Positions 36,859 through 59,092 are shown, counted from the first letter of the stretch. The stretch is 64,000 nt of DNA from a virus (IMGVR_UViG_3300012952_003947:7832-71831); one strand, 5' to 3'. Notes: generated by a model not told the origin, from the letters alone. Program-made: numbers and translations.

Positions 36859-37161
36859 TTACTCCTTATTGAAAAATGTTTCTGAGTTGATATTCTTATC
36901 GTCTATGAAGAGATCATAAACCGGTTTTCCAAGCTTAAGTTCATGATGCTTGACTCCCCATTCGATAAACTGTTTTTCGGTGACCTCTCTCCAATCTATA
37001 CCAGAGCCGGTGCCTCTAGCTGTCCAATAGATAATTGTATTACCATTATCGTACAATTCATTAATTTTGTTAATATTTTTTTCTATTGGGGTCGCTTTTG
37101 AATAATCTCTATCCTCTGGGGAGATACAGATTGTCTCGTCAATGTCTACATAAATAATCAT
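36859..37161 (-). CDS. small HAD-superfamily phosphatase (capsule-biosynthesis phosphatase type)
   Basis: IYVDIDETIC (DxD), YWTARG, GKPVYDLFIDDK motifs. Confidence 0.8.
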   Translation of the reverse strand: MIIYVDIDETICISPEDRDYSKATPIEKNINKINELYDNGNTIIYWTARGTGSGIDWREVTEKQFIEWGVKHHELKLGKPVYDLFIDDKNINSETFFNKE

Positions 37162-37902
37162 TTATCTCTCGTAATCGTCTTCTATTCTGACAATATCATC
37201 TTCACCAAAATAAGTTCCAAGTTGGGTTTCTACAAACACAAGTTGTTCTTGCCCCGAGTTATGAATTCTATGCTTTGTCTTGGCAGGAATTTCAATGATG
37301 GATCCCGCTCGAACTTGAGTTTCTTTACCGTCGAGTGTTAGGACGCCCTCGCCAGACACAATTGTCCAAACTTCGCTTCTTTTATAATGATATTGATAAC
37401 TTAGTCTATGTCCGGGCTCAACCCATATTTTTTTGACCTTGCAATCATCAGAGTCTAAAAGTACTTCATAGCGGCCCCATGGTCTAATATTAGACTCCGG
37501 CTCATTAGAAGTTTTCAAAAAGTCAGTAACCATATCGTGAATTCTAAAATCAACTTTAGTTTTCCACTCGTCGTTCCCAGAAGCTACGCCGTCTCGAATA
37601 GAGGTTGCAGAAATAAATCCAATATCCGGAGGGGGAACGAACTCATTAATTTCATATCCAACTCCTCGGCCATAGTTAACACTCTCAATATCTGGAATTG
37701 ATATAATCTTAACATCCGCCTCTTCATATACCTTTTCCAACATTTTAATCGTCTGCTCTGTTGTGAAAGGGTTTTTCTCATCAGGAGGTATGTCTCTAAC
37801 AGCAATTAAAACCGGTATATCTTTTTCTAATTTTTGTGATATCAACCACTTATGGCCGTTATGGGCTGGTTGCCATCTGCCAATAAACATTGCTCTCTTC
37901 AT
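37162..37902 (-). CDS. HIGH-family nucleotidyltransferase (NadM-like) fused to a mannose-6-phosphate isomerase type II cupin
   Basis: FIGRWQPAHNGH and ISATSIR; C-terminal RPWGRYEVL...VKKIWVEPGHRLSYQYHYKRSEVW...G. Confidence 0.75.
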   Translation of the reverse strand: MKRAMFIGRWQPAHNGHKWLISQKLEKDIPVLIAVRDIPPDEKNPFTTEQTIKMLEKVYEEADVKIISIPDIESVNYGRGVGYEINEFVPPPDIGFISATSIRDGVASGNDEWKTKVDFRIHDMVTDFLKTSNEPESNIRPWGRYEVLLDSDDCKVKKIWVEPGHRLSYQYHYKRSEVWTIVSGEGVLTLDGKETQVRAGSIIEIPAKTKHRIHNSGQEQLVFVETQLGTYFGEDDIVRIEDDYER

Positions 37903-38630
37903 GTAATATTCCTCATTATAAAATATTCTAATGTATTAGCAGACCTTTCAATGTCCGCCGAGTCTGTTGGAATGAGTAGGTCCACATCCGTCGGAGGCTC
38001 AAAAGGATCCGATATTCCTGTAAAATTATTTATTCTCTCCGGATGACCGTCTGGTAAGAGTGCCTTCCTATATAGACCTTTTGTATCTCTCTCTTTAACA
38101 GTGTCTAAGCTAGCTTTTATATAAACAAGCTTGCCATTAGGGTCTAGTAGCTTTAACTCTTTTCTAACGTCGTCATACGGATTAATAGCTGATATTATTG
38201 TGACAACGTTGTTTCTTGCCAAGACTTTAGCGACAAAACCTAGTCTTCTAATATTTCTGTTCCTGTCTTCTTTGGAAAACCCCAGATCACTGCACAAACC
38301 GGCCCTATACTCGTCTCCGTCGATTACCTCTACTTGGATACCTTTTCTTCGCAATCTTTGCTGTACGAGGCGGGCAAGGGTGGTTTTGCCAGATCCAGAT
38401 AGGCCGGTCATTTGAATAAAGAGACCTCTCGTCCTGCCCCAGGTTGTACTATTCCAAGCTCTTTCATGAAGAATATACAGCGCAATCATGAATACTTGAT
38501 ATATAATAGCAACCAAGCCGGTTTGTTCCAAAGACCCGGTAACAAAATATGCAATACAGCTTAATACAAAAAGACCTATTAATCTCCAACTTATAGCTTT
38601 TATTAAACTTCTTTTCTTAGAATCAATCAT
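37899..38630 (-). CDS. cysC: adenylyl-sulfate (APS) kinase with N-terminal DUF2061-like membrane domain
   Basis: TGLSGSGKTT P-loop, DGDEYR...LGFSKEDRNRNIRR, RDTKGLY, FTGISDPFEPP; N-terminal KRSLIKAISWR plus two hydrophobic helices. Confidence 0.9.
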   Translation of the reverse strand: MIDSKKRSLIKAISWRLIGLFVLSCIAYFVTGSLEQTGLVAIIYQVFMIALYILHERAWNSTTWGRTRGLFIQMTGLSGSGKTTLARLVQQRLRRKGIQVEVIDGDEYRAGLCSDLGFSKEDRNRNIRRLGFVAKVLARNNVVTIISAINPYDDVRKELKLLDPNGKLVYIKASLDTVKERDTKGLYRKALLPDGHPERINNFTGISDPFEPPTDVDLLIPTDSADIERSANTLEYFIMRNIT

Positions 38631-38631
38631 T

Positions 38632-39495
38632 TTACACCCTTACTAAAAAATCTGCAACCGGCTTTTTGTGCTCAGGCAAATTATCATATTGTTGTTGTTT
38701 AATTTTAAATAAATTTTCATGTACTCCGGGTCTGCCGCCTTGAAGCTCTGGGTGTATGACGAAATTTAACGTGAGCATCGTTCTTTCTTGTTTAACAGGC
38801 TTTGTGCCTCGATGATATGACGTAGTAAACCCTGTTAAGAGATCTCCCTTCTTTGCAGTTAAATACATTAAAGAATCTTCTCCGTATAGATTTTTCATCT
38901 CATCTTCTGACCATCTGTGTCTCACTTGGTGATCCAGCGGCATCTTGTTCCAACTATCTCTTATTAAAGTGAGTGGCCCGTCTTCGGGAGAATCTACATC
39001 ATTCAAATACATAAAAAATTTAAAAAATTTAATACTGTTTTTGTCTCTATGAAAAAGTTGTGTAGTAGTGGGAGGCAAATCATTTAAAAAGCTTTTTCTT
39101 AAATTAAATGTTCCAATCGCCGGCATACATTTAAAGTACTCTTTGGCAAAATTAACAAGCGGATCGCTAAAAGCTATTTGCTGCACCTCGTCGCTAACTA
39201 AAAATGGGTTTGCAACAGTGGCATAGTGGCTATCAATAGATTTTAAGTCCACATTATTTTTTATGCAGAAATCAACCTTATCTTTTATAGTGTCTAAAAG
39301 ATCATGGTCTATTGCTTGTTCCCATTTGGTAAAACCGTTAGTCTTTAAATCTTCAATTTTTTCATCATACTCGCCAGTTAATTCGATAGGATATTTCTCT
39401 TTCCTCTCCAAAAACTGCTTATTATAATATTCTACAGCAGCTTGGCCGCCGTTATAAAAACCAACACTATCCGGTTCGAACCAATAATTATTCAC
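38632..39495 (-). CDS. 2OG-Fe(II) dioxygenase, PhyH-like
   Basis: FHRD...FFMYLNDV...GPL...GD...HRG...RTML (HxD...H...R). Confidence 0.8.
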   Translation of the reverse strand: MNNYWFEPDSVGFYNGGQAAVEYYNKQFLERKEKYPIELTGEYDEKIEDLKTNGFTKWEQAIDHDLLDTIKDKVDFCIKNNVDLKSIDSHYATVANPFLVSDEVQQIAFSDPLVNFAKEYFKCMPAIGTFNLRKSFLNDLPPTTTQLFHRDKNSIKFFKFFMYLNDVDSPEDGPLTLIRDSWNKMPLDHQVRHRWSEDEMKNLYGEDSLMYLTAKKGDLLTGFTTSYHRGTKPVKQERTMLTLNFVIHPELQGGRPGVHENLFKIKQQQYDNLPEHKKPVADFLVRV

Positions 39496-40222
39496 TTTCT
39501 TTTGGCTCCATTATTGCTAGTAGCGCTGGAGATTGTACGCCTTCTTCGATTTTTAGAATATTAAAATATCTTGAGGCTATAGATTCAAAAGATTTTTTTG
39601 AAAAGTAGTGTGTGTGTCCGTCATAATTATCTATTGTTGGATCAACCAATTTTCTTTTTCGGCCTTTGCCAGACAAGGAAATTAATAAAGGAATTTCAAT
39701 AATACAACGTTTTAATGCTAGCTGGGACATTTTCTTAAGAAAGTTTTCTATATCCTCAACATGTTCTAACACATGCCACGCTGAAATTACATCATAACTT
39801 TTAGAAGTTTCTAGTTTTAGAAAGTCTTCCTCGTAAGTGGTAAACCCTAATTTTTTACACTCGCTTATCAGTGATGGGTCCAATTCTGTGCATTCAATAC
39901 TGTCTACTTTATCCTGCAAATGTTTTGCAAATGTTCCCGCGCCGGCGCCGATATCTAACCAAGAATATTTTTCATTCAAATATTGATCGATCATTTCAAC
40001 TCTTTTGGAACAAATATCTTTTCTTTTCTCGTGAAATAATTCTGTAACATTGCCTTCAGCGTCTATCTCGGCATGGTCCCTTCGCTCAATAGTTCTATAT
40101 TGCTCTTGGTGGTACTTTACGCTATCCCCAGGGTATATCCTATGTATGTGACCGCAAGTATCACACTTTAATGTGTTTTGGTACACATTTTTATACTCAG
40201 ATCCACAGCAATGACATTTCAT
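39488..40222 (-). CDS. class I SAM-dependent methyltransferase with N-terminal zinc ribbon
   Basis: CHCC/CDTC cysteine pairs; LDIGAGAGTF motif I; YDVISAWHVLEH. Confidence 0.85.
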   Translation of the reverse strand: MKCHCCGSEYKNVYQNTLKCDTCGHIHRIYPGDSVKYHQEQYRTIERRDHAEIDAEGNVTELFHEKRKDICSKRVEMIDQYLNEKYSWLDIGAGAGTFAKHLQDKVDSIECTELDPSLISECKKLGFTTYEEDFLKLETSKSYDVISAWHVLEHVEDIENFLKKMSQLALKRCIIEIPLLISLSGKGRKRKLVDPTIDNYDGHTHYFSKKSFESIASRYFNILKIEEGVQSPALLAIMEPKESE

Positions 40223-41064
40223 TTTTTAGTAACTCCGATAAACTCAGGATCTACAAAAGTGTCAACATGATAATTTGTACCAGTATGTTTCCTTGAAATG
40301 TAAGGTCTAATTCTTTTTATTGTTGGTTTTACCATAAATGTTAATACATCTCTCGTTTTTTCTTCACAAAACGTAGCTCTGTGAATGATGTTATTATCAA
40401 ATATTATAGCAGTTCCTGCAGGTCCTGTTAATTTTTTTGGTTCATAGCCAGAGCCAATTAAACTTTCAATTTGATCATTAGAAAATCTACTCGGATCCCA
40501 AATAGGAGGACAAGCCTCGATCCATCGAATATGGTCAATTCTAGTTGTAAAAGCTTTATGGCCATGGTTGTTTTTTGATAAAACTTGGAAGGCGCCGTTT
40601 TGCTCTTCAACATCATCTAGATATATCATTATTTTAATGATTTCTTTTGGATGATTATCCATATGCCAGGAAAGAGAACCAACAGACTTTTCATCGTAAT
40701 TGCCAGTTTTTGTCCTATACGCATATACTGCCATGGCCTGAACATTACAATTAAATACAGTCTTTTCTACTTCTGGTAGAATAATTTCTGCTAATTCTTC
40801 TATTCTCGGAATATCCCACGGATTCTTATACCGCAGGAGAGGTTGATTTTTTATATCAACTCCGGAGGGAGTAAATATTTTTTTCGGATTTTTATATTCT
40901 TTATCTAAAAAATTTTTAATTTCATTTATAATATTCAAATAATCCGAATTGAAATGGCTTGGGTCAACCGCGCGGTACGTAAAATCATACAGACTTTGAT
41001 TTAGCCGAGTTCTATTTTCATAAGTTTCCTTACATAGTTCATAGTATTGTTCATAGGTTAACAT
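40219..41064 (-). CDS. 2OG-Fe(II) dioxygenase, PhyH-like
   Basis: WHMDNHP...IMIYLDDV...GPAGTAIIFDNNIIHRAT...RDVL. Confidence 0.8.
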   Translation of the reverse strand: MLTYEQYYELCKETYENRTRLNQSLYDFTYRAVDPSHFNSDYLNIINEIKNFLDKEYKNPKKIFTPSGVDIKNQPLLRYKNPWDIPRIEELAEIILPEVEKTVFNCNVQAMAVYAYRTKTGNYDEKSVGSLSWHMDNHPKEIIKIMIYLDDVEEQNGAFQVLSKNNHGHKAFTTRIDHIRWIEACPPIWDPSRFSNDQIESLIGSGYEPKKLTGPAGTAIIFDNNIIHRATFCEEKTRDVLTFMVKPTIKRIRPYISRKHTGTNYHVDTFVDPEFIGVTKK

Positions 41065-41065
41065 T

Positions 41066-41917
41066 TTAGTTTGATTTCTCTTTAAATTCTATTAAATCTC
41101 TATAATTCATAGGTTCAACAATATTGTCTAATCCCATCAAATTGCCATAAAGTTGGGTTCTTTGGAATTTAGTGTGATCGTATATCATTCTCACTGCATG
41201 GAGAGTATCTACAGACGGTTTAAATAATACTATTGAGTTATTCTTATTAGTTACAACTTTGGTCTCGCACCAATCCCACGGTACCCAGGTTGTATTTTTT
41301 TGATGGTTTTCGTTCCAATAATCTTTTACAAATTCCCATTCTGGTTTAAATTTAAGCAGGTTGGTATGAATTTGTTCTTCATCAATACTGCTGTTTTTAT
41401 TGATATTAAGAAGATATGTTAGTTGCTTCTCTCTGACATCTGGGTGTGGACTAATCTCATAGTGCGAAAGATTTTTTTGAATCGCTGTTATGATTCTAGT
41501 CTCTTTTACAATCTCAAACTTTTCTTCCAAGGTTTGTTTGAACTCTTGTCCATTTAAGTAATCTGTAAGTTCTCGTATAAGATTATTTTGTATTTTGGAT
41601 AATCTAAAAGTAACACCATAACTCTCTATTGGAGTACCCTTTCTGCCATAAGGAAAACTATTGTTATTGTAGTGATGAAGATACTCTTCTAAGTCAGTTG
41701 TACAGCCAGGAAAATTTTGTACTACATAATCTTTTTTCTGTAAAACATCTATCAACGCTTCTGTATCTCGGACTGGTTCGAAATGAATCTGCTTATCGGC
41801 CAGTATTATTTCTAGATGTTCTTCTTTTAAAACATTTTCGATTAAAAGATGCTTAAAGGGCTCTTTCTTAAACTCTGCGTTTTTTATTTTTTCGGAAATG
41901 TAGGAGAATTCACCCAT
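41066..41917 (-). CDS. 2OG-Fe(II) dioxygenase (prolyl-hydroxylase-like)
   Basis: PFKHLLIENVL, ISPHPD, LTYLLNIN, NSIVLF...TLHAV...RTQLYGN. Confidence 0.75.
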   Translation of the reverse strand: MGEFSYISEKIKNAEFKKEPFKHLLIENVLKEEHLEIILADKQIHFEPVRDTEALIDVLQKKDYVVQNFPGCTTDLEEYLHHYNNNSFPYGRKGTPIESYGVTFRLSKIQNNLIRELTDYLNGQEFKQTLEEKFEIVKETRIITAIQKNLSHYEISPHPDVREKQLTYLLNINKNSSIDEEQIHTNLLKFKPEWEFVKDYWNENHQKNTTWVPWDWCETKVVTNKNNSIVLFKPSVDTLHAVRMIYDHTKFQRTQLYGNLMGLDNIVEPMNYRDLIEFKEKSN

Positions 41918-41927
41918 TTGCCTGCCT

Positions 41928-43013
41928 TTATTTTTGTAAAATATCTCTTATCTTAAAGCAATAATCATCAAATTTATTTTGATATTGTTTCATATTTCTA
42001 TTACGTATATCATACCAATTAGATAAGTAGTCTTTATCATTTTTTAATTTATTTACTTTCTCGTATATTAGTTGATCCCAATTAGACTGTCTAATATCTA
42101 CATTATAGTCTTCGAATCCATTTTTAAGAGAAAAGCCTAAAACCTTATCTTGTGTAGAGAAATAAATTGAAGGCAGGTTTAGGCCAACAGAGCACAATTG
42201 GCCATGGCCGCGCATCACTATTCCATAATCGTAATCATGATAAGATTTAAAAATTTTCATAAAATTATCATATTTTATAAGCTCAGTAAATTCTTGTTGA
42301 TTCCACTGGAAGCTCTCAGTTGAAATTTGTGGAAACTTATAATCTTTTGGACAATGTGGGATAGTTTTTAAATCCAACTCTTTTATAAAATTTGATACTT
42401 TTTCTAAATTTGCAGGAAATAATCCTCTGCCGGCAATAATATCATCACCAGAGTTCCAGGCCGGTTGAAATAATCCATTTTTTATGGTTTCTTTTTGGTC
42501 GGCTTCGAAACCAAATATTAACCCAGGGTCCGGCACTTCTGGTACTTGCATGTTATTAAAGTAGTTTGATATCGTTTCTTGTGATCCGTCATTCCTAACA
42601 GAAAATAATTCACATCTATCGATAAAAGCTTTTATATTATGTAATCCCTCTCTTGTCATTCTATTTCTATTACGAAAATTATTAACCCCGACCGCAAAAG
42701 CAACCATAGGAATATCTATAACAGATAGCACATCTGCATTAAAAGGCAGTTTATAATATGTTTCAAATTTATGCTCGCCCTCTATAAGGCCGCCGCCTCC
42801 AACTATAAGAAGATCATTTTCTTCGGAAACTTTTTTAAATAAATTTTTAGAGTATTCTACGTTATTTCGTACATCATGAAAAGGTAAAATATTAACCGAA
42901 GACCATTCTATTTTTTGATCGACTATTTCATTTAGTCTTTTCCTGATATTGTAAGAAGCAATATTATCTCCGGCGTTAATACCGTACGATGCTAAGTGAG
43001 CAATCTTTATCAT
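41928..43013 (-). CDS. polysaccharide pyruvyltransferase family protein
   Basis: NAGDNI, LLIVGGGGLI, FSVRNDGS, VPDPGL, MRGHG motifs. Confidence 0.75.
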   Translation of the reverse strand: MIKIAHLASYGINAGDNIASYNIRKRLNEIVDQKIEWSSVNILPFHDVRNNVEYSKNLFKKVSEENDLLIVGGGGLIEGEHKFETYYKLPFNADVLSVIDIPMVAFAVGVNNFRNRNRMTREGLHNIKAFIDRCELFSVRNDGSQETISNYFNNMQVPEVPDPGLIFGFEADQKETIKNGLFQPAWNSGDDIIAGRGLFPANLEKVSNFIKELDLKTIPHCPKDYKFPQISTESFQWNQQEFTELIKYDNFMKIFKSYHDYDYGIVMRGHGQLCSVGLNLPSIYFSTQDKVLGFSLKNGFEDYNVDIRQSNWDQLIYEKVNKLKNDKDYLSNWYDIRNRNMKQYQNKFDDYCFKIRDILQK

Positions 43014-43870
43014 TTGAATATCAAACCTCTGTGAGATGGATCCATAAACATGTCCTTGTTCTGTAATCCACCAGTATGTTCTTTGTTAATATATGGAGAT
43101 AGCTTTTCTATAGATGGTTTTATTAAAAAATTCACTACGTCGCGGTGAGATTTTGTAGCCGTCGTTGCTCTGTGTATAACGTTTTCATTAAAAATTATTA
43201 CAGTACCTGCAGGACCACAAACTTTTGTAGGCTCGAAGCCCATCTCTTTCAATTTATCCATTTGATATGGACTAACTCTGCTATTGTTTGGCGCAGCTTT
43301 CCATTCTTTAAAACTAGTTCTAGTCGAATTATGTTTAAAAAGTTCTTTAGTCTCTTTATGTTGTAAAAATTCTAGCGGTGCGCAATCCTCGTCGACATCT
43401 GTTAGATAAATCATACATTTCATATATTCATATGGGTGATTATCAAAATGCCAAAGCCAAGACATACGGGGATCCCTATCGGTAATATTATTTCTGTATA
43501 TATATAAATTTTGAACTTGGATATTGCATCCAAAAAGATTTTTTTCAATCTGCGGCATTAAAATTTGTGTTATTTCTTCAAGACCGTCAATATCGAAAAA
43601 ATCCTTGCAAAATCTTACCAAATCATTATCCTTAGAAATACCGTCAGGTCCTGGCGGCCAGTAGCAAAGATCATCATTTGCCAATCTGTGATCTGAAGTT
43701 TTTGCTACTTTTTTTACAAGATCGGTATACTGCTCAGGAATACTTTCTATTATTGCAGCGCTTGAATCAGGAAACACAATTTCATGAGTAAAAGAGTATA
43801 AATCCACTGCAGGGGTGGGCATACCGGCTGCTTCTCTAGCTAAATTATAATATTCTTCATACGTTTTCAT
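43010..43870 (-). CDS. 2OG-Fe(II) dioxygenase, paralog of 40219-41064
   Basis: WHFDNHP...CMIYLTDV...GPAGTVIIFNENVIHRAT...RDVV; shares the TYExYY start and HTG near the C-terminus with 40219-41064. Confidence 0.8.
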   Translation of the reverse strand: MKTYEEYYNLAREAAGMPTPAVDLYSFTHEIVFPDSSAAIIESIPEQYTDLVKKVAKTSDHRLANDDLCYWPPGPDGISKDNDLVRFCKDFFDIDGLEEITQILMPQIEKNLFGCNIQVQNLYIYRNNITDRDPRMSWLWHFDNHPYEYMKCMIYLTDVDEDCAPLEFLQHKETKELFKHNSTRTSFKEWKAAPNNSRVSPYQMDKLKEMGFEPTKVCGPAGTVIIFNENVIHRATTATKSHRDVVNFLIKPSIEKLSPYINKEHTGGLQNKDMFMDPSHRGLIFK

Positions 43871-43871
43871 T

Positions 43872-45461: not shown

Positions 45462-45462
45462 G

Positions 45463-50708: not shown

Positions 50709-51720
50709 TTTTTATTTCTTTCTTTACTAGACAAATATCGCTTTGAACCATCTTTTTTACAAGATTGGGAAAATCAGTCTTAGGTTCCCATCCCAACACT
50801 CTCTTAGCCTTTGAAGAATCTCCGCAAAGAACATCAACTTCTGCTGGGCGCATATAACGCGGATCTTGAACTATATATTGATTCCAATCATCTATGTCTA
50901 CAGCAGAAAATGCAGCGTCCAAGAAATCTCTAATTGAATGACTTTCTCCCGTGGCAACAACATAATCGTCTGGTGTTTGATGTTGAAGCATTAGCCACAT
51001 CGCCTCTATAAAGTCAGGTGCGTATCCCCAATCTCTTCTAGAATCTAGGTTTCCCAGAGCAATGTGATCTTGTAACCCTAGGTGTATTCTAGCTACGCCG
51101 TCTGATATTTTTCTTGTAACGAATTCTATTCCTCTCCTCTCTCCTTCATGATTAAAGAGGATTCCGCTGCAGTTAAACATCTTATAAGATTCCCTGTAGT
51201 TTTTACACATCCAGTGACCATATACTTTAGCTATACCGTACGGACTGCGAGGGTAGAACGGAGTCATCTCATCCGATCTTGCTTTGAGAGTAGTCCTATT
51301 ACCGTCTAACTGTAAATTTGTAGTGTTGCCAAACATCTCAGATGAGCTAGCCTGATAGAATCTAACTGGCTTACCATATTCTCTAATAGCCTCAAGTATT
51401 CTCAGTACACCCAATCCTGTAACGTTAGAGGTTTGCTCAGGAATATTCCAAGATGCACCAACGAAAGACTGTGCTCCTAGATTATATACTTCATGAGGTT
51501 TTATTTGGCGTAGCAACCTTAAAAGTGAATTTTGATCTGTTAAATCTCCAGAAACAAACTCAAAATCATTCTCGTTTTCTAAATGTAAAGTATTAGCTCT
51601 ATTTTTTGTAGAGGAACGTCTTTCCATACCGTAAACTCTATAACCTTTTTCTAAAAGAAAATCAGCAAGATGGCTACCATCCATGCCGTTTACGCCAGTT
51701 ATTAATGCTCTTCTTTTCAT
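50692..51720 (-). CDS. gmd: GDP-mannose 4,6-dehydratase
   Basis: ALITGVNGMDGSHL, YNLGAQSFV, FYQASSSEMFG, PRSPYGIAK, GILFNHE, FVTRKI, RDWGYA. Confidence 0.95.
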   Translation of the reverse strand: MKRRALITGVNGMDGSHLADFLLEKGYRVYGMERRSSTKNRANTLHLENENDFEFVSGDLTDQNSLLRLLRQIKPHEVYNLGAQSFVGASWNIPEQTSNVTGLGVLRILEAIREYGKPVRFYQASSSEMFGNTTNLQLDGNRTTLKARSDEMTPFYPRSPYGIAKVYGHWMCKNYRESYKMFNCSGILFNHEGERRGIEFVTRKISDGVARIHLGLQDHIALGNLDSRRDWGYAPDFIEAMWLMLQHQTPDDYVVATGESHSIRDFLDAAFSAVDIDDWNQYIVQDPRYMRPAEVDVLCGDSSKAKRVLGWEPKTDFPNLVKKMVQSDICLVKKEIKNAKNN

Positions 51721-51735
51721 ATAACCTCTCTTGTT

Positions 51736-52947
51736 TTATTTCTCTGACTTTGGTTTTTCAAATGGGTTCCAAGCGACCGTGCCCTTATCACTAATTGGCT
51801 GGAATGTTGCTGGAGCATATACATGCAGGTCTTTATATAGTTCATCTTTTGTATAGTCAATTGGTGTTATATCAAAAGTATTATCAACAGCAAAGGTGCT
51901 CTTGTGGTCAAAACTTTTAGATAAATTTAATTTATGTTTTATATTATCATTTAAAGGAAAAAATTCTGTAGAAAATTCAGTCGAAACATTATATTCATGA
52001 CATTCTCCTAGATTGTATAAATTGAAATTATGTTCTTTTTGAAGATTAAGTATATAATTCCAATAAGACACGTATTGTCTATTTTGAAAGCTTACACCAA
52101 AGTCTTGAAACCATTTTGGATTTTTTTTATTTGCCTCAAAAGCATGTCCAGAACTGTTTTGTTTAAAACCATCTATGCCAACAAAATATATATCTTTTAC
52201 CCCCAAAGCAATTGCATAGCACAGCATTCTCAAAGACACTCCCGGTTGACCCCTGTATCTAGTGTGAAAAAAAGAACATGTATCTGGGTGCTTGCTAATA
52301 AAATCTTTCATATTTCTATAATCTTTAGAGGCATCGCCGCGTTCTATTTCAAAAGCAACTTTTGTATTTTTATTTTTCAAATAACTTTCTAACTTTTCAT
52401 TATTTAAAAAATCTACATTTGGCGCCAAGGTAATTAAGTCTATATCGACATCTTGAAATCTAGAATCTAGAAAAAAGTTATTACACGACCATATAAAATC
52501 AGTTTTAATATTTTGCCAATCGACGTCCTTAGTGGATGGTCCTCCGGATACTATCAGAACGCTCTTTCCTTCGTATTTTTCTAGATCCTGAGTTTTGCTA
52601 AATACCCACTCTTGGTTGTATATGGTTTCTTGATTTTTTAATGTTTCTATATCAAACTTTGATATAATATTTTCTACAAGAGATTTACCCCATCTTCCTT
52701 GTATAAAATCTCTTTTATCACTGCAAAAGCTATGATCTTTGCCAAATACTGTTTCTCTATATTGTTCAGGACTAAAATATCTTCGTGCGGTGGCGTCAAA
52801 CCAAATTGTACTGTCTGCAGCGGTTGGGCATTGAAGATAAAAACTTTTAAACGCTTCGTATACTTCCCTCTTATCGACAATAGACTTTAAAACCTTTCCG
52901 TTCTCATAAACGCAAAAGCAATTATTAAATACTTTTCCTAGAAACAT
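51736..52947 (-). CDS. CstII/GT42-like nonulosonyltransferase, paralog of 47091-48167
   Basis: LIVSGGPS...DFIWSCNNFF; AIALGVKDIYFVGIDG; HAFE; YNLGE; shares the N-terminal extension with 47091-48167. Confidence 0.6.
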   Translation of the reverse strand: MFLGKVFNNCFCVYENGKVLKSIVDKREVYEAFKSFYLQCPTAADSTIWFDATARRYFSPEQYRETVFGKDHSFCSDKRDFIQGRWGKSLVENIISKFDIETLKNQETIYNQEWVFSKTQDLEKYEGKSVLIVSGGPSTKDVDWQNIKTDFIWSCNNFFLDSRFQDVDIDLITLAPNVDFLNNEKLESYLKNKNTKVAFEIERGDASKDYRNMKDFISKHPDTCSFFHTRYRGQPGVSLRMLCYAIALGVKDIYFVGIDGFKQNSSGHAFEANKKNPKWFQDFGVSFQNRQYVSYWNYILNLQKEHNFNLYNLGECHEYNVSTEFSTEFFPLNDNIKHKLNLSKSFDHKSTFAVDNTFDITPIDYTKDELYKDLHVYAPATFQPISDKGTVAWNPFEKPKSEK

Positions 52948-53664
52948 TTATCTCACCGTATTGTGAAGCTCTTTACCTTCACCTAAATTAATAAATGCAG
53001 TCTGCTTGTATAAATCTTTTGCATACTTCCAAAAATATTCATACTGCTTCTTAAACACATCTTCAGAAAAAGAAGATGGTAGAGTTTTCTTACCCGGCTC
53101 AAAAGCATGCTCGCCTTTGTAAATTGGCTTAAAACCATCCAAGCCCGCAAACTTAACTTCTTTGCATCCCAGTGCTGCAGCAAATAATATCATTCTAGGA
53201 CCAATACCTAATTTTCCATAAAATTGTGTATGCATACAAAAATATTTTTCATAATCATTAAAATTATATCCAAACCACTTATCATGCACTTCGAAACCGA
53301 GAAGAGGCTTATACTTATCAGTATAGCTTTTTAATTTATCGTTGTCAAGATCAACTTCAGACATCATCATTGCTAAATCAATTTTTTTATTAGCTAGCTT
53401 TTCATTTCGAAAAAAGTTATTGCAAGACCAAATAAAATCTTTATCTATGCTATCAAAGTCTAGTTTATTAGTTGATGGGCCACCGCCTAAAATAAGAACT
53501 GTAGAATTATTATAGTCTTTAAACTCTGGCAAATCACTATAAACAATATGATTTGTTGCAACTACACTTTTAACAAACTTCTTAAAACTAAGTCTGCAAT
53601 CTCGAATCACCCAATCAGGAAAGCTTTCAGTTGCTCGGTGGTGTTGAAAACAGTTGTACATCAA
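52948..53664 (-). CDS. CstII/GT42-like nonulosonyltransferase (short form)
   Basis: LILGGGPS...DFIWSCNNFF; AAALGCKEVKFAGLDG; HAFE; INLGE. Confidence 0.6.
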   Translation of the reverse strand: MMYNCFQHHRATESFPDWVIRDCRLSFKKFVKSVVATNHIVYSDLPEFKDYNNSTVLILGGGPSTNKLDFDSIDKDFIWSCNNFFRNEKLANKKIDLAMMMSEVDLDNDKLKSYTDKYKPLLGFEVHDKWFGYNFNDYEKYFCMHTQFYGKLGIGPRMILFAAALGCKEVKFAGLDGFKPIYKGEHAFEPGKKTLPSSFSEDVFKKQYEYFWKYAKDLYKQTAFINLGEGKELHNTVR

Positions 53665-54491
53665 ACACCCCTAAGTTTCTTCCTTATAGGTTTCTCCCCT
53701 TCGGTCACAACCTTATTTCCGTCTCCTAGGGCCATTTCTAGCTCTCTAACGCCCTTTACAAGCTTTATCAAGCCTTGGGGTTCTACGGAGGCTAGATGGT
53801 CAGAGCCCCACATTGTGCGGTCTAATGTAATATGCCTTTCCAAGATCGTTGCTCCGAGATATACAGAAGCGACAGTTGTGCCTAGTCTAAATTCATGGCC
53901 ACTATAGCCGACCTCACAATCGTATCTCTCTTTTAAAGTTTGGATGCATTTTAGGTTTAGCTCTTCAAGTGGTGACGGATATGTAGAATTACAATGCAAC
54001 ATTGCAAATTCTGCTTCTTCCTCTCGCAGAATCTCTACTGCATGATCGATTTCTTCTATTGTGCTCATACCGACAGAGAAGATAATCTTCTTTCCAGTGC
54101 GCGCGGATTCTCTCAATAGTTCGTCATTTGTTAACATCGCAGAAGGAATCTTAATCCAAGGAATATCATATTGCATTATAAACTTGAGACTATCTAAATC
54201 CCAAGGAGAAGCTGACCATTCTATACCTTTAATGTGGCAATAAATATCAATCTCATCGTAATCTTCTTGCTCAAATTCCACTTTATGTTTATAGTCAAGA
54301 TAAGTCATTGTACCCCATGGGGTTTCTCTCATAACACCCTTTTGATGCTCTGGTACACATACATCTGGATTTCTCTTTTGAAACTTAACTGCGTCGCAGC
54401 CGGAGAGTGCTGCAATATCAATTAGCTTTTTAGCAGTTTCTAAATCACCATTATGATTAATTCCGATTTCTGCAATTATATATGTTTTCAT
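53661..54491 (-). CDS. neuB: NeuB-type nonulosonate synthase lacking the SAF domain
   Basis: IAEIGINHNG, DAVKFQKR, RETPWG, IKIPSA, LHCNSTYP, GYSGHE, LERHITLDR, GSDHLAS; ends without a SAF domain. Confidence 0.9.
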   Translation of the reverse strand: MKTYIIAEIGINHNGDLETAKKLIDIAALSGCDAVKFQKRNPDVCVPEHQKGVMRETPWGTMTYLDYKHKVEFEQEDYDEIDIYCHIKGIEWSASPWDLDSLKFIMQYDIPWIKIPSAMLTNDELLRESARTGKKIIFSVGMSTIEEIDHAVEILREEEAEFAMLHCNSTYPSPLEELNLKCIQTLKERYDCEVGYSGHEFRLGTTVASVYLGATILERHITLDRTMWGSDHLASVEPQGLIKLVKGVRELEMALGDGNKVVTEGEKPIRKKLRGV

Positions 54492-56524
54492 AGTTTTACT
54501 CTTGGTATATTTTCATACAAGTTGCTTTTATTAGATACCAGTTCTAATTCTACGCCCTTCTCTTTAAGCCAATAAAACAACGCCTCGGAAGCTTCGCAAG
54601 TTATCGAAATCTCCCAAGGTAAAATGTCTCCTTTATTAAACATCTTTTTGTCTTCATAAAAATGCTTATAATCTTTATCTCTCTTGGGATCCTTCTTTGA
54701 TAAATCCCAACCTAAAGCAACTATTTTCTTAACCCCTAAGTGTTGAGCCATATATATTACTGTTTCATAAAGTATGCCCGGACCACAGGGCCTTGTAGGA
54801 GTTTTAGACATTATATAGTCATCAAACTTTTTTGTCAAGCAAATAAACTCATTATTTATTTCTGTTCGAATAGGGATCTTAAAGAAGATATCATGTTTTT
54901 GAAATTCGCTCCATCTCATATGAAGAGGATAATTACTACTAGCAACAACGATCGGATCGCTTTCGTTATATTGATAATGTTCTTGAACGAAATCTCCAAC
55001 CGGCTCTGGCAAATTAGCACAATTAAAGAAATGAAAATCAACGACTTCCGGTGTATATTCATATGCTTGTTTTACTGCAAATACTAGTTTATCTTTTAGT
55101 TTTTCTTTAAGAACATTTTTCCTGTTGTCCGATAAAGATGGACCACAATTAAGAAGATAACAAACTTCTCCTTCGAAGGCATTATGCAAAATTTCCATTT
55201 GCTTTTCAATAGATTCAGTTCTGGCTAACTGTTTTTTAATTTGTCTGGTCTTTTCCTTGACAGGAGGAAGGTCCTCGACGACATTTTCAACCTCAAGCTC
55301 CTTTAGAGCGTCTACCATGGTCTTACCAATACTACAAGGATCATACCCGTTATTTAAAATATGTGTCGATCCAGTTTCGCCCATTTTTATTAGCTCGCTA
55401 CGTTTTTCTTTCCATAAATTATATGCAGCCCTTAATTGTTTTCTTGCAGAGGAAATGTTTGATTCAAACCATTGTCCATTACAATCATAAGGAACAACTG
55501 TAAAAAGACAACTGTCCCATTGACCGTCGACGGGGAACATTGCATCTTCGTGAATAAAATCGACGTGGCCGCCTTCTTTTGGTACTATAACAGGCTTCTT
55601 GTGTGTTAGAGCCTCTGCGATAGGTAAACAGAAGCCCTCCCCTCTAGAGAGCAAAGAAAACACATCTGATTTTTTATAAAGCCAAGAAATATTTTCATTA
55701 GAAATAAAACCGGGAATCAATACAATATTATTAGATTTCGAAGGTTGGTTCCACGGAAAAAGCATAGACTTTTTAATATGCATAATTTCGTTTCTAATTT
55801 TTGTTATATCATGAGACTGGCTTCCAAATGTTTTCAAGAGTAGTATAGCATCATCATCAAATTCAAATTCTGCTGTAAATGCTTGAATTAATTTATCAAA
55901 CCCTTTTCTTTTAGTCCACTGCGAAATAGATAAAACAACAAATTTTTCATCCAAATTAAATGGTAATTTCATTGGATCGTAATTGCCAGTTGGAGGCTCA
56001 ACAATATGCGGAACAACTCTGCAAGGTATGTCTAAACCTGCGTTTTTAGTATCTTTTTCAAATGTTTTTTTATTCCACTCACAAGGAGTTATAATCATAT
56101 CAGGTTTTAAATACTCATAGTCTCTCACCCATTCTTCTGGAATTAAGTCTGTTTCCCAAGCAACATAGTTTGCCTTATATTTAGCATTTTTTATAAGCCT
56201 TTGCATTGCTGGAGAACAGTTTGGTGTGGGCTTAAACCTCTTATCGGCAAAAAGAATAAGCGGCGGGGGCATGTGCCATAAAAACACATATTCACTATTG
56301 ATGGTGTCTTCAATCTCGCTGTCATCTTTAAATTCATATTTTTTAAGCAAAGCTTTTTCATCAGAAGTTAATTTATCTGATTCTGAAACTACAGACGAGT
56401 ACACCTTCAATTCGAAAGCATTCGGATTTTTCTGTAGATACGCATCGAGTGCTTTAATGTAGCCTCTAGCGGCGACACCGTATCCGCTTTTATCGCGTGA
56501 TTGGCAACAATATACTATTCTCAT
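54488..56524 (-). CDS. GT4 glycosyltransferase fused to a Maf/DUF115-like domain
   Basis: SGYGVAAR, YVAWET, SRGEGFCLPIAEA; C-terminal LLNCGPSL, FAVKQA, MAQHLGVKKIVALGWD. Confidence 0.75.
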   Translation of the reverse strand: MRIVYCCQSRDKSGYGVAARGYIKALDAYLQKNPNAFELKVYSSVVSESDKLTSDEKALLKKYEFKDDSEIEDTINSEYVFLWHMPPPLILFADKRFKPTPNCSPAMQRLIKNAKYKANYVAWETDLIPEEWVRDYEYLKPDMIITPCEWNKKTFEKDTKNAGLDIPCRVVPHIVEPPTGNYDPMKLPFNLDEKFVVLSISQWTKRKGFDKLIQAFTAEFEFDDDAILLLKTFGSQSHDITKIRNEIMHIKKSMLFPWNQPSKSNNIVLIPGFISNENISWLYKKSDVFSLLSRGEGFCLPIAEALTHKKPVIVPKEGGHVDFIHEDAMFPVDGQWDSCLFTVVPYDCNGQWFESNISSARKQLRAAYNLWKEKRSELIKMGETGSTHILNNGYDPCSIGKTMVDALKELEVENVVEDLPPVKEKTRQIKKQLARTESIEKQMEILHNAFEGEVCYLLNCGPSLSDNRKNVLKEKLKDKLVFAVKQAYEYTPEVVDFHFFNCANLPEPVGDFVQEHYQYNESDPIVVASSNYPLHMRWSEFQKHDIFFKIPIRTEINNEFICLTKKFDDYIMSKTPTRPCGPGILYETVIYMAQHLGVKKIVALGWDLSKKDPKRDKDYKHFYEDKKMFNKGDILPWEISITCEASEALFYWLKEKGVELELVSNKSNLYENIPRVKL

Positions 56525-57789
56525 TACAACACTACTACCTGATCAGCTTGAGGCTCTATTTGCATTTCCTCTTCACCTAAAATTGCTTCAACAAATTCTT
56601 TATACTTATCATCAGATTTAAAGTTTTCCAAAATCCAAGATTGAAGTTTCTTTGCTTGAGACTCAAATCTTCCTAAATCTTTATAGACTTCCATTAGGCG
56701 TTTCTTATAAGAAAATTTATCTGCATATGCCCACTTAGAATCTGCTTGTACAACTCCATCCCACACAGCCTCTCTTTGAACATTTTGCAATGTATAATCA
56801 ACCTTAGCAAACATTGGTTTAATTTTTGTTTTGCCTTTTTTATCTTTTATTGGCATACAGAGAAAATCCATATGACCACTCCAATCCGGAGCTAGAATAG
56901 GCAAGCCCTGCTGTGCGGCCTCGAATAGAGGAAGGCCAAAGCCTTCTCCGTGAGCTAGTGTTAAGTAAGCCTTAACTTTTGGATGAGTGTATAGAGAGGT
57001 CATTTCCTCGTCAGTCATACTACCATGCATTAGATATATTTTGCATTTATAGTCTTTATTATCTAAAGTATGCAATACTGATCTCAGCTTATGTTCAGTT
57101 GCAGTTTTATCCATAGTAGAATTATTAGCTTTATTACTTTTGATTATTAGACCAACATCTTCGTTTTGATGAAATTCCTCAACAAACCACTTGACTGTTT
57201 TATCTAAATTTTTTCTTGGACCCCACTGAGCTACTGTTAGAAAATTAAAATTAGATTCTAAATTTATACCCAGATCATGTGTTTTAAACGCTTTACAACA
57301 ATAATTCACAGGAATAATAGGAGTTCTTACTTTAAACTCAGGAAAAACTTCGCCTGTTTCAGTATCTTCGGCTTGATAAACGGTGTTTGCGAAAGCTTCT
57401 TTTGCAAAACTAGAAACAACAATAATTTTATCCATTATTTCAGATTTCTCAACCCATTGCGGAGATATTTTAGTTGTTTCAATACCAGCAGTATAGCCAA
57501 TATTTATTGGAGCTTTTTTGGTCCATTCATTCGGTATGGTCACCTGCAAAGATATATCAAACATACCACCGCTACTCATATAAAAATGAGTCTTTTGGAT
57601 TAGCATTTCAATCCATTGTGATTCTTCCGTGCGCTCAGTCATACAATTTGTTCGACCCCAATTTGTATTTTCCAAAAAGATATCAAACCTATCTTCATGA
57701 GCCCTTAAAGATCGTAAAGCAAACCTGCATTGTTCACCGTATCCCGATCTAGACAGGGCAGGGCCTCTAACAATTATTCTTTTTTTCAA
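56524..57789 (-). CDS. GT4 (GT-B) glycosyltransferase
   Basis: SRSGYGEQ, GYTAGIET, RKNL, HGEGFGLPLFEAA, WSGHMDF. Confidence 0.85.
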   Translation of the reverse strand: MKKRIIVRGPALSRSGYGEQCRFALRSLRAHEDRFDIFLENTNWGRTNCMTERTEESQWIEMLIQKTHFYMSSGGMFDISLQVTIPNEWTKKAPINIGYTAGIETTKISPQWVEKSEIMDKIIVVSSFAKEAFANTVYQAEDTETGEVFPEFKVRTPIIPVNYCCKAFKTHDLGINLESNFNFLTVAQWGPRKNLDKTVKWFVEEFHQNEDVGLIIKSNKANNSTMDKTATEHKLRSVLHTLDNKDYKCKIYLMHGSMTDEEMTSLYTHPKVKAYLTLAHGEGFGLPLFEAAQQGLPILAPDWSGHMDFLCMPIKDKKGKTKIKPMFAKVDYTLQNVQREAVWDGVVQADSKWAYADKFSYKKRLMEVYKDLGRFESQAKKLQSWILENFKSDDKYKEFVEAILGEEEMQIEPQADQVVVL

Positions 57790-57790
57790 C

Positions 57791-59092
57791 TTAATCTCCC
57801 GAGATATCTATTTTCTTTAAAGTCCAGGGCTCGTAATTCTTTCTTGTATCCCAAGAACCATGTTTTTCGTGAACTTTCGTTAATAAATTAAACCAATTAT
57901 TTCTATAGGTTTCGAAATTATAATTTTTTAATACGTGTTCGCGACCTTTTGCACCTAGAGCCAATCTTTTTTCTCTGCCCATTTCGTACATTTCGACCAA
58001 TGCATTAACAACATCTTCCTCATCGACCCTGTCTTCATATATCCAAGGCACCGGTTGTGAACCAATTACTGCTTTTGAAGATGGTTCTATACCAATTCCA
58101 AACCACTCTTCACCATCCGTTACTTGTTCTTGTAATCCTCCTGTCATATTCACTATGATAGGAGTTCCACAAGATAATGACTCCAAAGTGCCTAATCCAA
58201 AACCTTCAGCGTCAGCAATATTAATTGTACAATCTGCCATATTGCAGAACAAGGCTATCATCTCTGGTGGCACTTTTTGCTCTGAGAATTTAATCTGGCC
58301 ATTTAACATGCCCAAGTGATCGCCTATTGCTAGCAAATCTTGTCCGTACTGATCATGTACATCGGTGTGCATCAGAAGCATCGCCTTATCTTCGCCAACT
58401 CTATTAAGGAATTCCTTAAACCACCAAATTACACTTCCAGACTGTTTTCTCTTTGCGTTTCTATTATTCCAAAAAAACAACATTTTGTCGGAGTCGGGAC
58501 CAAATTCAGGACCGAAGTTTTGTACTCGCTGTTTAAACCTTTCTGTTTCAGACATTGGTTTAAAAATATCGGTATTAACAGAGTGAGGTACATAATGTGT
58601 TTCAACATCTGGAGAAACATTTCTAACAATATCATCTGTAACTTTTGAAATAGTAGCAATCACATCATTGGAATCATACAGGGGCTTATTAAACGTTGGG
58701 TATGGCTTATTATCCCAAACATGATAATATATCATCGGGACAACAGATCTGATTTCATCGTCAATAGCCCAAAGCCATTCGTAAAAGCGAGGATCTGTCA
58801 TAAACCAAAGCATGTCAGGCCGCTCAGCTTTAAGAGCCTGCCTAACTTGTTCTTGATTTCCGTAACCTTTTACTGGTTGAATGATAAAATCCTCTCCCCA
58901 CGGATCAACTGCTAGCGTTTTAAAACTACGATGATCAATAGCTCCGCCAAGACAATAGAATTTAAATCTACCCGTCTTTAATAAATTATCTATCATATAT
59001 AATGTTTGTGTACCAACGCCCGATGGAGATAGCGGGTGGTCGGATATTACCATTACTTTAATTTTATCTTCTTGCGGTAATGTACCTTGCAT
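57791..59092 (-). CDS. GT4 (GT-B) glycosyltransferase
   Basis: PSGVGTQ, VPHSVNTDIFKP, NRNAKRK, AEGFGLGTLESLSCGTPII. Confidence 0.9.
   Translation of the reverse strand: MQGTLPQEDKIKVMVISDHPLSPSGVGTQTLYMIDNLLKTGRFKFYCLGGAIDHRSFKTLAVDPWGEDFIIQPVKGYGNQEQVRQALKAERPDMLWFMTDPRFYEWLWAIDDEIRSVVPMIYYHVWDNKPYPTFNKPLYDSNDVIATISKVTDDIVRNVSPDVETHYVPHSVNTDIFKPMSETERFKQRVQNFGPEFGPDSDKMLFFWNNRNAKRKQSGSVIWWFKEFLNRVGEDKAMLLMHTDVHDQYGQDLLAIGDHLGMLNGQIKFSEQKVPPEMIALFCNMADCTINIADAEGFGLGTLESLSCGTPIIVNMTGGLQEQVTDGEEWFGIGIEPSSKAVIGSQPVPWIYEDRVDEEDVVNALVEMYEMGREKRLALGAKGREHVLKNYNFETYRNNWFNLLTKVHEKHGSWDTRKNYEPWTLKKIDISGD

Follow-up and report, generated by a model that had tools for sequence, protein, structure and literature searches.

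A constant GT4 glycosyltransferase pair with an exchangeable cassette of putative nonulosonate, sulfation and pyruvylation genes in a marine T4-type phage

In Campylobacter jejuni, lipooligosaccharide (LOS) is sialylated with the aid of NeuB1, NeuA1, CstII and CstI, i.e., a NeuB-family synthase, a CMP-activating enzyme and soluble transferases of the GT42 fold. Genes of the same three kinds were found in a bacteriophage record, IMGVR_UViG_3300012952_003947, of which we analysed a 64-kb stretch (hereafter the window) out of 71.8 kb. They belong to an island at positions 36859-59092, comprising 22 open reading frames (ORFs), all of which lie on the minus strand and mostly abut or overlap by a few bases (Table 1). 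The phage system is distinct from that of C. jejuni in that its GT42-like proteins are ~20% identical to the C. jejuni enzymes, possess an extra N-terminal domain of 115 amino acids (aa), occur as three to four paralogs and are encoded by a lytic phage, and its donor sugar is probably not N-acetylneuraminic acid (Neu5Ac). All biochemical roles and the pathway logic described below were inferred from domains.

Other known systems for sialic acid-like sugars (nonulosonates) share parts of this gene set. Bacteroides thetaiotaomicron reportedly uses a pathway composed of a synthase for the 9-phosphate of 2-keto-3-deoxynononic acid (Kdn), a phosphatase and a CMP-Kdn synthetase. The Kdn pathways of B. 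thetaiotaomicron and Streptomyces (SCO4879-4881) resemble the island in that a small HAD phosphatase accompanies a synthase and a cytidylyltransferase, and genes for hexosamine modification are lacking. Nevertheless, the phage phosphatase is of the EcbF/BcbF type and not of the KdsC type, the Streptomyces specificity was inferred from the polymer, and the phage genes are known from sequence alone. The only well-studied route that places nonulosonates directly on protein is that of the Maf proteins, which O-glycosylate flagellin. In mycobacteriophages and chloroviruses, virions are glycosylated by virus-encoded, soluble, cytoplasmic transferases without lipid-carrier machinery, and the island is similar in these respects. 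The glycans of those viruses are present on virions, whereas the clade treated here is known from its genes. To our knowledge, neither nonulosonate nor sulfate occurs on mycobacteriophage or chlorovirus virions, and our literature search yielded no report of phage particles that bear nonulosonate or sulfated glycans.

Clusters of glycan genes have been described in phages before. The host-recognition clusters of pelagimyophages and cyanomyophages contain variable blocks of glycosyltransferase and sugar-nucleotide genes by the tail-fibre genes (PMC7029224), and phage neuA/neuB/neuC clusters and CysC have been listed among auxiliary genes, as in the Lake Biwa virus LBVG_26 with neuA/B/C (bioRxiv 10.1101/655167). 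These papers assumed a role at the host surface. The present phage belongs to another branch, and its locus differs in combining a constant GT4 pair and a cassette with a GT42-like family, sulfation and pyruvylation. Such clusters are usually filed as 'LPS-like auxiliary genes' (LPS, lipopolysaccharide); new here are the fixed transferase pair with a swappable cassette, an arrangement that cultured phages also possess, the complete range of anionic decorations (nonulosonate, sulfate and pyruvate), a small GT42-fold family of putative nonulosonate transferases, data that favour a Kdn-type affinity of the conserved synthase, and an argument by which DNA is an unlikely target.

The record, with a CheckV completeness of ~40%, is that of a T4-type (Straboviridae-like) phage. 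It encodes a gp6-type baseplate wedge protein at 23519-25318 and is collinear gene for gene with a 203,859-bp viral genome (G001) with direct terminal repeats, a completeness rating of 100% and a gp23-type capsid gene; this collinearity bears out the phage origin of the contig assumed in the original prediction, a note made from the sequence alone. Among named phages, those with the most similar capsid and baseplate proteins are Flavobacterium phage vB_FspM_immuto, Microcystis phage Mel-JY01, Rhodothermus phage RM378 and the uncultured 484-kb phage LR756508.1. The major capsid protein (MCP) is 45-55% identical to those of the four phages and just 34% identical to that of Pelagibacter phage HTVC008M, and we rejected a pelagimyophage affiliation on the latter value. 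The phage is a marine T4-type member of the RM378/immuto branch. Nucleotide searches against the phage collection yielded no match, and the lineage is known from metagenomes only: several protein relatives derive from Tara Oceans data, and a relative with NeuB, labelled 'marine virus', came from seawater.

As judged from gene order among relatives, the locus is built of a constant pair of GT4 glycosyltransferases (GT4-A and GT4-B), followed by an apparently horizontally exchanged cassette that extends 3.4-22 kb up to a late-sigma-like gene. Two sets of relatives were compared: the best 80 of 218 confirmed viral contigs retrieved with the short NeuB of the island (counts out of 80 refer to these loci), and the five near-complete genomes closest in the sigma-like flank gene (62-74% identity), which has relatives in at least 599 viral contigs. 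GT4-A is kept in all of the five near-complete relatives (59-63% identity), including four that carry no NeuB-family gene, and GT4-B was found in 52 loci with a median identity of 42%. The nonulosonate module was rejected as a core trait of the clade, as the four genomes without NeuB are complete. The distance from GT4-A to the sigma-like gene ranges from ~3.4 to ~21 kb in the five relatives, and is 22 kb in this phage. The minimal locus, found in G007 (180.7 kb, terminal repeats), is composed of the PD-(D/E)XK nuclease, GT4-A, GT4-B, three small ORFs and the sigma gene. Both island borders are available in 20 loci, every one of which carries three GT4 genes, NeuA and the mini-HAD, together with NeuB and GT42-like proteins in one or two copies each. 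The same order, i.e., the nuclease, two glycosyltransferases and a variable run of sugar genes, was recognized by annotation in the cultured immuto phages, which grow on Flavobacterium sp. LMO8, and in Mel-JY01, which grows on Microcystis. GT4-A homologs are also present in RM378 (Rhodothermus) and LR756508.1.

The sigma-like gene is up to 74% identical to those of NeuB-less phages, versus a median of 59% to those of NeuB-bearing phages; being nearer to the former than to most of the latter, it fits an exchange of the cassette. The GC content falls to 0.326-0.328 at 40001-46000, in comparison with 0.35-0.39 on both sides, and this stretch coincides with genes whose homologs are rare in, or missing from, related islands. 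Inside it lies the sulfotransferase-GT2 fusion (43872-45461), for which no homolog was detected in the 80 related loci. Other members of the cassette are widespread: NeuA is present in 73/80 loci (median identity 53%), the mini-HAD in 50/80, and the distant PhyH-like protein (38632-39495) in 31 related loci.

Pfam and NCBIfam profile searches of the 22 ORFs recovered the contiguous same-strand block foreseen in the original prediction, with matches for the phosphomannose isomerase (PMI) cupin, Gmd, two NeuB, NeuA, the HAD phosphatase, three GT4, one GT2, CysC, the sulfotransferase, the pyruvyl transferase and the methyltransferase. What had been called GME (46093-47094) turned out to be a generic SDR; the model it fits best, GDP-L-fucose synthase, gave 110 bits where the cut-off is 500. 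As for the four 2OG-Fe(II) dioxygenases proposed, two gave PhyH matches just over the cut-off and are paralogs with 36% identity (43010-43870 and 40219-41064), while the other two show weak matches together with HxD...H motifs read in the sequence. The island had also been described as sitting beside a sigma factor and the baseplate module; the gp6-like wedge is a solid assignment, and the sigma gene is a weak one.

The original prediction counted four CstII/Maf-type transferase domains. Three of them are clear paralogs (52948-53664, 51736-52947 and 47091-48167, mutually 32-37% identical), while the fourth, which forms the C-terminal part of 54488-56524, is related to them just remotely. The protein of 51736-52947 exceeds the PF06002 cut-off (38.3 bits versus 25) and matches CstII in a phmmer search (1e-9), and the other two paralogs fall below this cut-off on their own. 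Its AlphaFold2 (AF2) model, based on 83 family members, has a pLDDT of 89, and residues 118-341 superpose on CstI and CstII (Z 12-13, rmsd 3.3-3.7 Å, 185-201 aligned residues); eukaryotic GT29 sialyltransferases follow at Z ~10. Invariant or near-invariant in the family are a GGGPS motif, D150, N156, R230, G257-D259-G260 and an HAFE..K segment. As modelled, the CstII-like proteins have the GT42 sialyltransferase fold. The family is small, with 321 representative clusters among 1.84 billion, and all source-labelled matches are unnamed metagenome proteins. The fourth domain was missed by the hidden Markov model (HMM) of this family, A1, and was detected solely in a profile-profile comparison, in which hhalign aligned it with A1 over 163 columns (93% probability, E 2.5e-7). 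Fusion of this remote GT42-like domain to a GT4 domain suggests that hexose and nonulosonate may be transferred to the same chain.

The likeness to the Maf system resides in cytoplasmic transfer from CMP-nonulosonates and in the MptE-like/DUF115 domain. Nevertheless, PF01973 (MptE-like/MAF_flag10) scored 20-23 bits in all four proteins against a cut-off of 34.6, there is no flagellin-type partner, and the best folds are GT42. No Maf chain occurs among the 50 structural matches listed for the 51736-52947 model, although by the rule of the search tool a family missing from the list may still be related. We regard Maf membership as unlikely on the subthreshold PF01973 scores and on the fold matches listed; the transferases look like glycan-directed GT42 enzymes.

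The short NeuB is 70-85% identical among the 80 listed viral contigs. Both NeuBs have PDB matches to NeuB/PseI structures (1e-36 to 1e-49) and remain below the NCBIfam equivalog cut-offs of TIGR03569 and TIGR03586 (269 and 286 bits versus 399.65; 197 and 212 bits versus 340.25). Cellular short NeuBs share 55-63% identity with the phage protein, and the matches include ~60 from Streptomyces (55-58%). In the tree, the phage short NeuBs form one clade (SH-aLRT 99) that is sister to equally short cellular NeuBs of Streptomyces, Acidimicrobiia, Planctomycetota, Chloroflexota, Myxococcota and others. The Streptomyces short-NeuB gene lies directly downstream of a NeuA-like gene, and the locus is said to be genetically linked to a Kdn polymer. 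SCO4880-SCO4881 is a comparable NeuA-NeuB gene pair in Streptomyces (PMC3479208), and Streptomyces walls contain a Kdn-bearing teichulosonic acid (PMC11481543). In a metagenome-assembled genome (MAG) of Myxococcota, the mini-HAD adjoins a short NeuB. The mini-HAD of the phage (36859-37161) retains the DxDxT motif and matches PDB 9iqw (E 7.7e-11), a 'capsule biosynthesis protein' for which our literature search found no paper, and more weakly TIGR01689 (EcbF/BcbF).

The set expected for Kdn via a 9-phosphate, i.e., a synthase, a HAD phosphatase and a CMP-synthetase, is present, and hexosamine-modifying enzymes are absent from the window: profile searches of the window found no NeuC, PseB/LegB, DegT aminotransferase or GNAT gene. 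Among related loci, a PseB-like gene occurs in 25 of the 29 with a separate long NeuB versus 12 of the 51 without one (p 8e-8), and DegT and GNAT genes likewise go with the long NeuB. A Kdn-type sugar is favoured by the sister relationship of the short NeuB to Streptomyces-type enzymes, by the mini-HAD next to NeuB in the Myxococcota MAG and by the PMI cupin; on these homologies, we put the chance that the nonulosonate is of the Kdn type and made through a 9-phosphate intermediate at roughly even. The fusion of a long NeuB with a xylose-isomerase-like TIM barrel, which forms a long branch in the tree, has a full-length homolog (39% identity) in a MAG of Chloroflexia, where a short NeuB and an APS kinase are its neighbours, and may supply a second ulosonate. 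Short NeuBs were also noticed on two contigs (L103 and L104) binned as a Marinoscillum single-amplified genome (SAG) and an 'archaeon' MAG. Both have 24-26% GC and genes packed on one strand, L104 additionally carries an APS kinase and a PMI cupin, and they may be mis-binned phage DNA or DNA of an infecting phage.

The island encodes a pair for sulfation dependent on 3'-phosphoadenosine-5'-phosphosulfate (PAPS), namely a kinase for adenosine-5'-phosphosulfate (APS; TIGR00455, 168 bits versus 138.7) and a sulfotransferase (PF03567, 51.3 bits versus 22). The kinase has transmembrane-like segments at aa 8 and 36 in its DUF2061 and is the only island protein that looks membrane-anchored; the same 243-aa architecture is found in a complete relative (G006, 59% identity). 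A Sat-type ATP sulfurylase (PF01747) was found neither in our record nor in G006, which also has the kinase, CysD/N being outside this search, and APS is presumably provided by the host. The gene at 37162-37902 overlaps cysC by 4 bp, and its HIGH-motif domain, which matches NMNAT/cytidylyltransferase-like proteins, is fused to the PMI cupin in this phage only; the cupin stands alone (112-146 aa) in relatives. RfaE domain II belongs to the same superfamily as this HIGH-type domain. The domain could be a mannose-1-phosphate (sugar-1-phosphate) nucleotidyltransferase or a non-canonical APS-forming enzyme, and the cupin could supply mannose-6-phosphate. By homology, Gmd and the SDR should lead to a GDP-6-deoxyhexose.

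The AF2 model of GT4-A (pLDDT 90) is that of a canonical GT-B enzyme with no added domain. Its top structural matches are effectively tied at Z 33-35 and comprise sucrose-phosphate synthase, a chlorovirus GT4 (PDB 3oy2, Z 34.4), MshA and BshA, followed by WaaG, PglA and TarM at Z 28-29. The modelled fold does not tell the class of the acceptor.

We propose that, within the infected cell, the two soluble GT4 enzymes would initiate or lengthen a sugar chain carried by an acceptor. The short NeuB would form a 9-phosphate intermediate, from which the mini-HAD would remove the phosphate, and NeuA would make the CMP-nonulosonate, probably a Kdn-like one, with a second ulosonate perhaps derived from the NeuB-TIM fusion. 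The PMI cupin/nucleotidyltransferase, Gmd and the SDR would provide a GDP-6-deoxyhexose, and the APS kinase would make PAPS from host APS. Three or four GT42-fold enzymes, one of them fused to GT4, would add nonulosonate to the chain, which would then be sulfated, pyruvylated, methylated and hydroxylated. The target would be a phage-intrinsic protein, most likely a virion protein, and the island would set a variable 'serotype' of the particle.

That the acceptor is a virion protein or another phage protein seems to us to have a chance not far short of even. The GT4-pair locus is shared by phages that infect Bacteroidota, Rhodothermota and Cyanobacteria, and the presence of the pair at one locus in spite of such different hosts points, indirectly, to an acceptor that the phage brings along. 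We also counted in favour of a phage-intrinsic acceptor that the enzymes are soluble, that lipid-carrier machinery is missing and that the locus adjoins the late-sigma-like and baseplate/fibre genes. It is attractive to speculate that the whole aquatic T4-type branch, with its cultured members on Flavobacterium and Microcystis, decorates its own particle with sugars, that the GT4 pair starts the chain and that the exchanged cassette sets its chemistry, here a sulfated, pyruvylated, Kdn-type sialoglycan. The locus would then be a viral counterpart of an O-antigen locus with exchangeable 'serotypes'. We hold this broader proposal tentatively, and consider it more doubtful than likely.

The absence of export and priming genes, on which the original prediction leaned, holds for the record and its relatives. 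Searches for the Bac_transf, WecA/MraY-type and Wzx (PF01943) families gave no match in the record and four relatives (G000-G004), in which the positive controls matched; genes of this kind lying just outside the window were looked for in the remainder of the 71.8-kb record and in G001-G004, and none was found there; the three relatives that are at least 94% complete lack them as well. Neither the record nor the complete G001 has an ORF with eight or more hydrophobic segments (Wzy_C and ABC2 were not searched by name), and the single seven-segment ORF of G001 encodes a 1028-aa protein by the capsid region. Hydrophobic segments are missing from every transferase, consistent with the claim that they lack membrane anchors, and CysC possesses two. 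The solubility of the enzymes supports synthesis in the cytoplasm, and the nonulosonate genes accompanied by sulfation and pyruvylation genes support an anionic glycan, both as predicted. The step from missing exporters to a virion target finds no such support: since CstII-, CstI- and WaaG-type enzymes need no dedicated exporter, the lack of exporters does not separate virion from envelope.

Several points weigh against a virion glycan of the kind proposed above. Virion glycosylation is a hypothesis drawn from gene content. The characterised GT42 enzymes closest in modelled fold act on LOS and not on protein, with no Maf-type protein among the listed matches, and the closest folds of the GT4-A model use small soluble or lipid-linked acceptors, making the fold silent on a protein acceptor. 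As regards the sugar, the Kdn assignment draws on homology to an uncharacterised Streptomyces enzyme, and both NeuBs miss the equivalog cut-offs for Neu5Ac/legionaminate and pseudaminate synthases. The island is dispensable, as the four complete relatives without NeuB demonstrate, and the membrane domain of CysC hints at a membrane-proximal site. No T4 late-promoter motif stands at the island, which precedes the sigma gene in a gene array with no break, so that late co-expression with structural genes is at most putative. The motif TATAAATA is not enriched in the sequence (12 found versus 9 expected) and none of its occurrences is at an island gene start, sigma-70 and terminator scans stayed at the background level, and no intergenic gap from PhoH to the baseplate genes exceeds 60 bp. 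Finally, the published reading of such clusters is a change of the host surface (PMC7029224; bioRxiv 10.1101/655167).

Alternatively, the soluble transferases modify an LPS/LOS core or a lipid-linked glycan at the cytoplasmic face of the host inner membrane, and the product is exported by host MsbA/Lpt, Wzx or an ABC transporter, giving a more anionic surface that blocks superinfection or the re-adsorption of progeny to infected cells and debris. We regard this remodelling of the host envelope as a real possibility, albeit one clearly less probable than even. In fold, the nonulosonate transferases are closest to the LOS sialyltransferases CstI and CstII, the fold matches of GT4-A include WaaG and PglA, and the missing export genes fit this scenario equally well, as such enzymes need no dedicated exporter. 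Pyruvyl transferases, sulfotransferases and nonulosonates are typical of capsule, exopolysaccharide (EPS) and LPS loci, the HAD resembles a capsule-biosynthesis phosphatase, CysC carries a membrane domain, and the variable island mirrors the variable O-antigens of hosts. An envelope role is also what has been published for the cyanophage, pelagimyophage and lake-virus clusters (PMC7029224; bioRxiv 10.1101/655167). Nevertheless, the GT4 pair is kept across three host phyla, which makes a shared host acceptor less likely, neither a priming enzyme nor a ligase was found, and the infection cycle of a lytic T4-type phage leaves little time for giving the cell a new coat.

It is improbable that the glycan is no surface coat and that the product of the GT4 pair, which the cassette then modifies, is soluble or intracellular, e.g., a glycoside resembling a compatible solute, or a non-structural protein of phage or host that becomes glycosylated. 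The top structural matches of GT4-A, including sucrose-phosphate synthase, MshA and BshA, do act on small soluble acceptors, but four nonulosonate transferases together with sulfo-, pyruvyl- and methyl-transferases imply a decorated chain of several residues, which is known from surfaces.

The least probable target, by far, is DNA, on the bases of which a glycan would protect against host nucleases while the neighbouring PD-(D/E)XK nuclease degrades unmodified DNA: T4-type phages classically glucosylate their DNA, the nuclease is a constant neighbour of the GT pair and 2OG-Fe(II) oxygenases are present, but these oxygenases are PhyH-like and not TET-like, the five complete clade genomes contain no ThyA-family hydroxymethylase (PF00303), a Tet_JBP search of clade genomes had no match (a weak point since its control was also silent), and we know of no nonulosonate-modified DNA. 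Analysis by LC-UV-MS (liquid chromatography, ultraviolet detection and mass spectrometry) of genomic DNA from immuto_2-6A, which carries the GT4 pair and a cassette, detected canonical dA, dC and dT, fdPreQ1 in place of dG, and no glycosylated nucleoside (PMC10516641). This cultured relative and the lack of the hydroxymethylase disfavour the DNA acceptor that the original prediction had kept in view. The clade has no deazaguanine pathway, as judged from the absence of QueC in the five complete genomes.

If the acceptor is on the virion, variable coats of acidic sugars would be carried by abundant marine phages, and would affect adsorption, aggregation, grazing, sinking and host-phage recognition. 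If it is in the host envelope, the island would be a large example of a lytic phage converting the surface of its host. The question is testable either way, as the cultured immuto phages and Mel-JY01 share the conserved transferase pair.

Table 1. Genes of the island and its conserved flanks, with the evidence for each assignment (AF2, AlphaFold2; SAF, domain name; TIM, barrel type).
Feature	Coordinates	Strand	Evidence
GT4-A, soluble GT-B glycosyltransferase, clade-core, constant island end	57791..59092	-	Glycos_transf_1; AF2 model
GT4-B, second constant glycosyltransferase	56524..57789	-	Glycos_transf_1
GT4 domain (aa 192-326) fused to remote GT42/MptE-like C-terminal domain	54488..56524	-	Pfam; hhalign
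Short NeuB-family nonulosonate synthase, 276 aa, no SAF; most conserved island gene	53661..54491	-	PF03102, 261 bits
GT42-like nonulosonate transferase paralog, 238 aa, catalytic domain only	52948..53664	-	36% identity to 51736-52947; A1 HMM E 1.8e-67
GT42-like (CstII/CstI-fold) nonulosonate transferase with extra N-terminal domain	51736..52947	-	PF06002, 38.3 bits; AF2 model
GDP-mannose 4,6-dehydratase (Gmd)	50692..51720	-	PF16363, 415.6 bits; TIGR01472, 405 bits vs cut-off 415
Long NeuB with SAF, fused to xylose-isomerase-like TIM barrel	48810..50708	-	Pfam, 233 bits; PDB NeuB/PseI matches
CMP-nonulosonate synthetase (NeuA/KdsB-like)	48136..48810	-	PF02348 (CTP_transf_3), 55.9 bits
GT42-like transferase paralog, shares N-terminal domain	47091..48167	-	37% over 334 aa to 51736-52947; A1 HMM E 2.8e-115
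NDP-sugar epimerase/reductase (SDR), possibly acting on Gmd product (activity inferred)	46093..47094	-	PF01370, 141.9 bits
209-aa protein, found in this island only	45463..46092	-	no Pfam/NCBIfam/PDB match; 0/80 loci
Carbohydrate sulfotransferase (aa 11-199; PF03567, Sulfotransfer_2) fused to GT2 (aa 242-403)	43872..45461	-	PF03567, 51.3 bits; PF00535, 32 bits
PhyH-type 2OG-Fe(II) dioxygenase	43010..43870	-	PF05721, 25 bits vs cut-off 22
Polysaccharide pyruvyl transferase	41928..43013	-	PF04230, 67.9 bits
Probable 2OG-Fe(II) oxygenase	41066..41917	-	weak YhhC match E 3.8e-5; HPD...H motif
PhyH-type 2OG-Fe(II) dioxygenase	40219..41064	-	PF05721, 24.2 bits
Class I SAM-dependent methyltransferase	39488..40222	-	PF13489, 65.6 bits
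Probable 2OG-Fe(II) dioxygenase, distant PhyH-like	38632..39495	-	BLASTP E 1.8e-5 to 43010-43870; HRD...H motif
APS kinase with N-terminal DUF2061 (two hydrophobic helices)	37899..38630	-	TIGR00455, 168 bits; PF09834
HIGH-motif nucleotidyltransferase (aa 1-90) fused to PMI-type cupin (aa 138-242)	37162..37902	-	PF01050, 100.7 bits; PF01467
Mini HAD phosphatase, 100 aa, DxDxT, sigma-proximal island end	36859..37161	-	PDB 9iqw E 7.7e-11; TIGR01689 weak
PD-(D/E)XK nuclease, conserved flank	59101..59886	-	PF12705, 81.9 bits
Late-sigma-like protein, conserved flank	35300..36013	-	phrog_234, E 3.8e-5

Some features around the island and in the complete relative were also noticed. Upstream of the island and on the same strand, 61276-62586 encodes a PIN domain fused to a PhoH ATPase (59-72% identity in relatives). 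Between the PD-(D/E)XK nuclease and a metallopeptidase-like gene lies a small ORF (59887-60291), which has a homolog in just one other locus and ends in a basic, Ser/Thr-rich C-terminal tail (25% S+T). The gp23-type capsid gene of G001 (L085 700-2289) encodes ~620 aa, and the Gp23 model matched it in two pieces; as compared with T4 gp23, this capsid protein has a large insertion, a candidate surface-exposed domain. G001 also encodes a tmRNA (L090 19518-19938; tag ANNNYYFEESRLAA) and six tRNAs (Lys, Ile, Arg, Asn, Met and Leu; L091, L097 and L099), none of which has a counterpart in the window.

On the other side of the island, PHROGs gave almost no matches for structural genes, and few Pfam matches were obtained with the giant fibre-like proteins. 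The gene at 33296-35038, flanked by the sigma-like gene and the baseplate genes, encodes a protein of 580 aa that ends in a VanY-like D-Ala-D-Ala carboxypeptidase domain and may be a virion-associated cell-wall hydrolase. The baseplate/fibre region includes two giant proteins of 3197 and 2189 aa (12261-21854 and 25761-32330), and their sole Pfam match is Laminin_G_3, a ConA-like lectin domain, at aa 194-394 of the 3197-aa protein.

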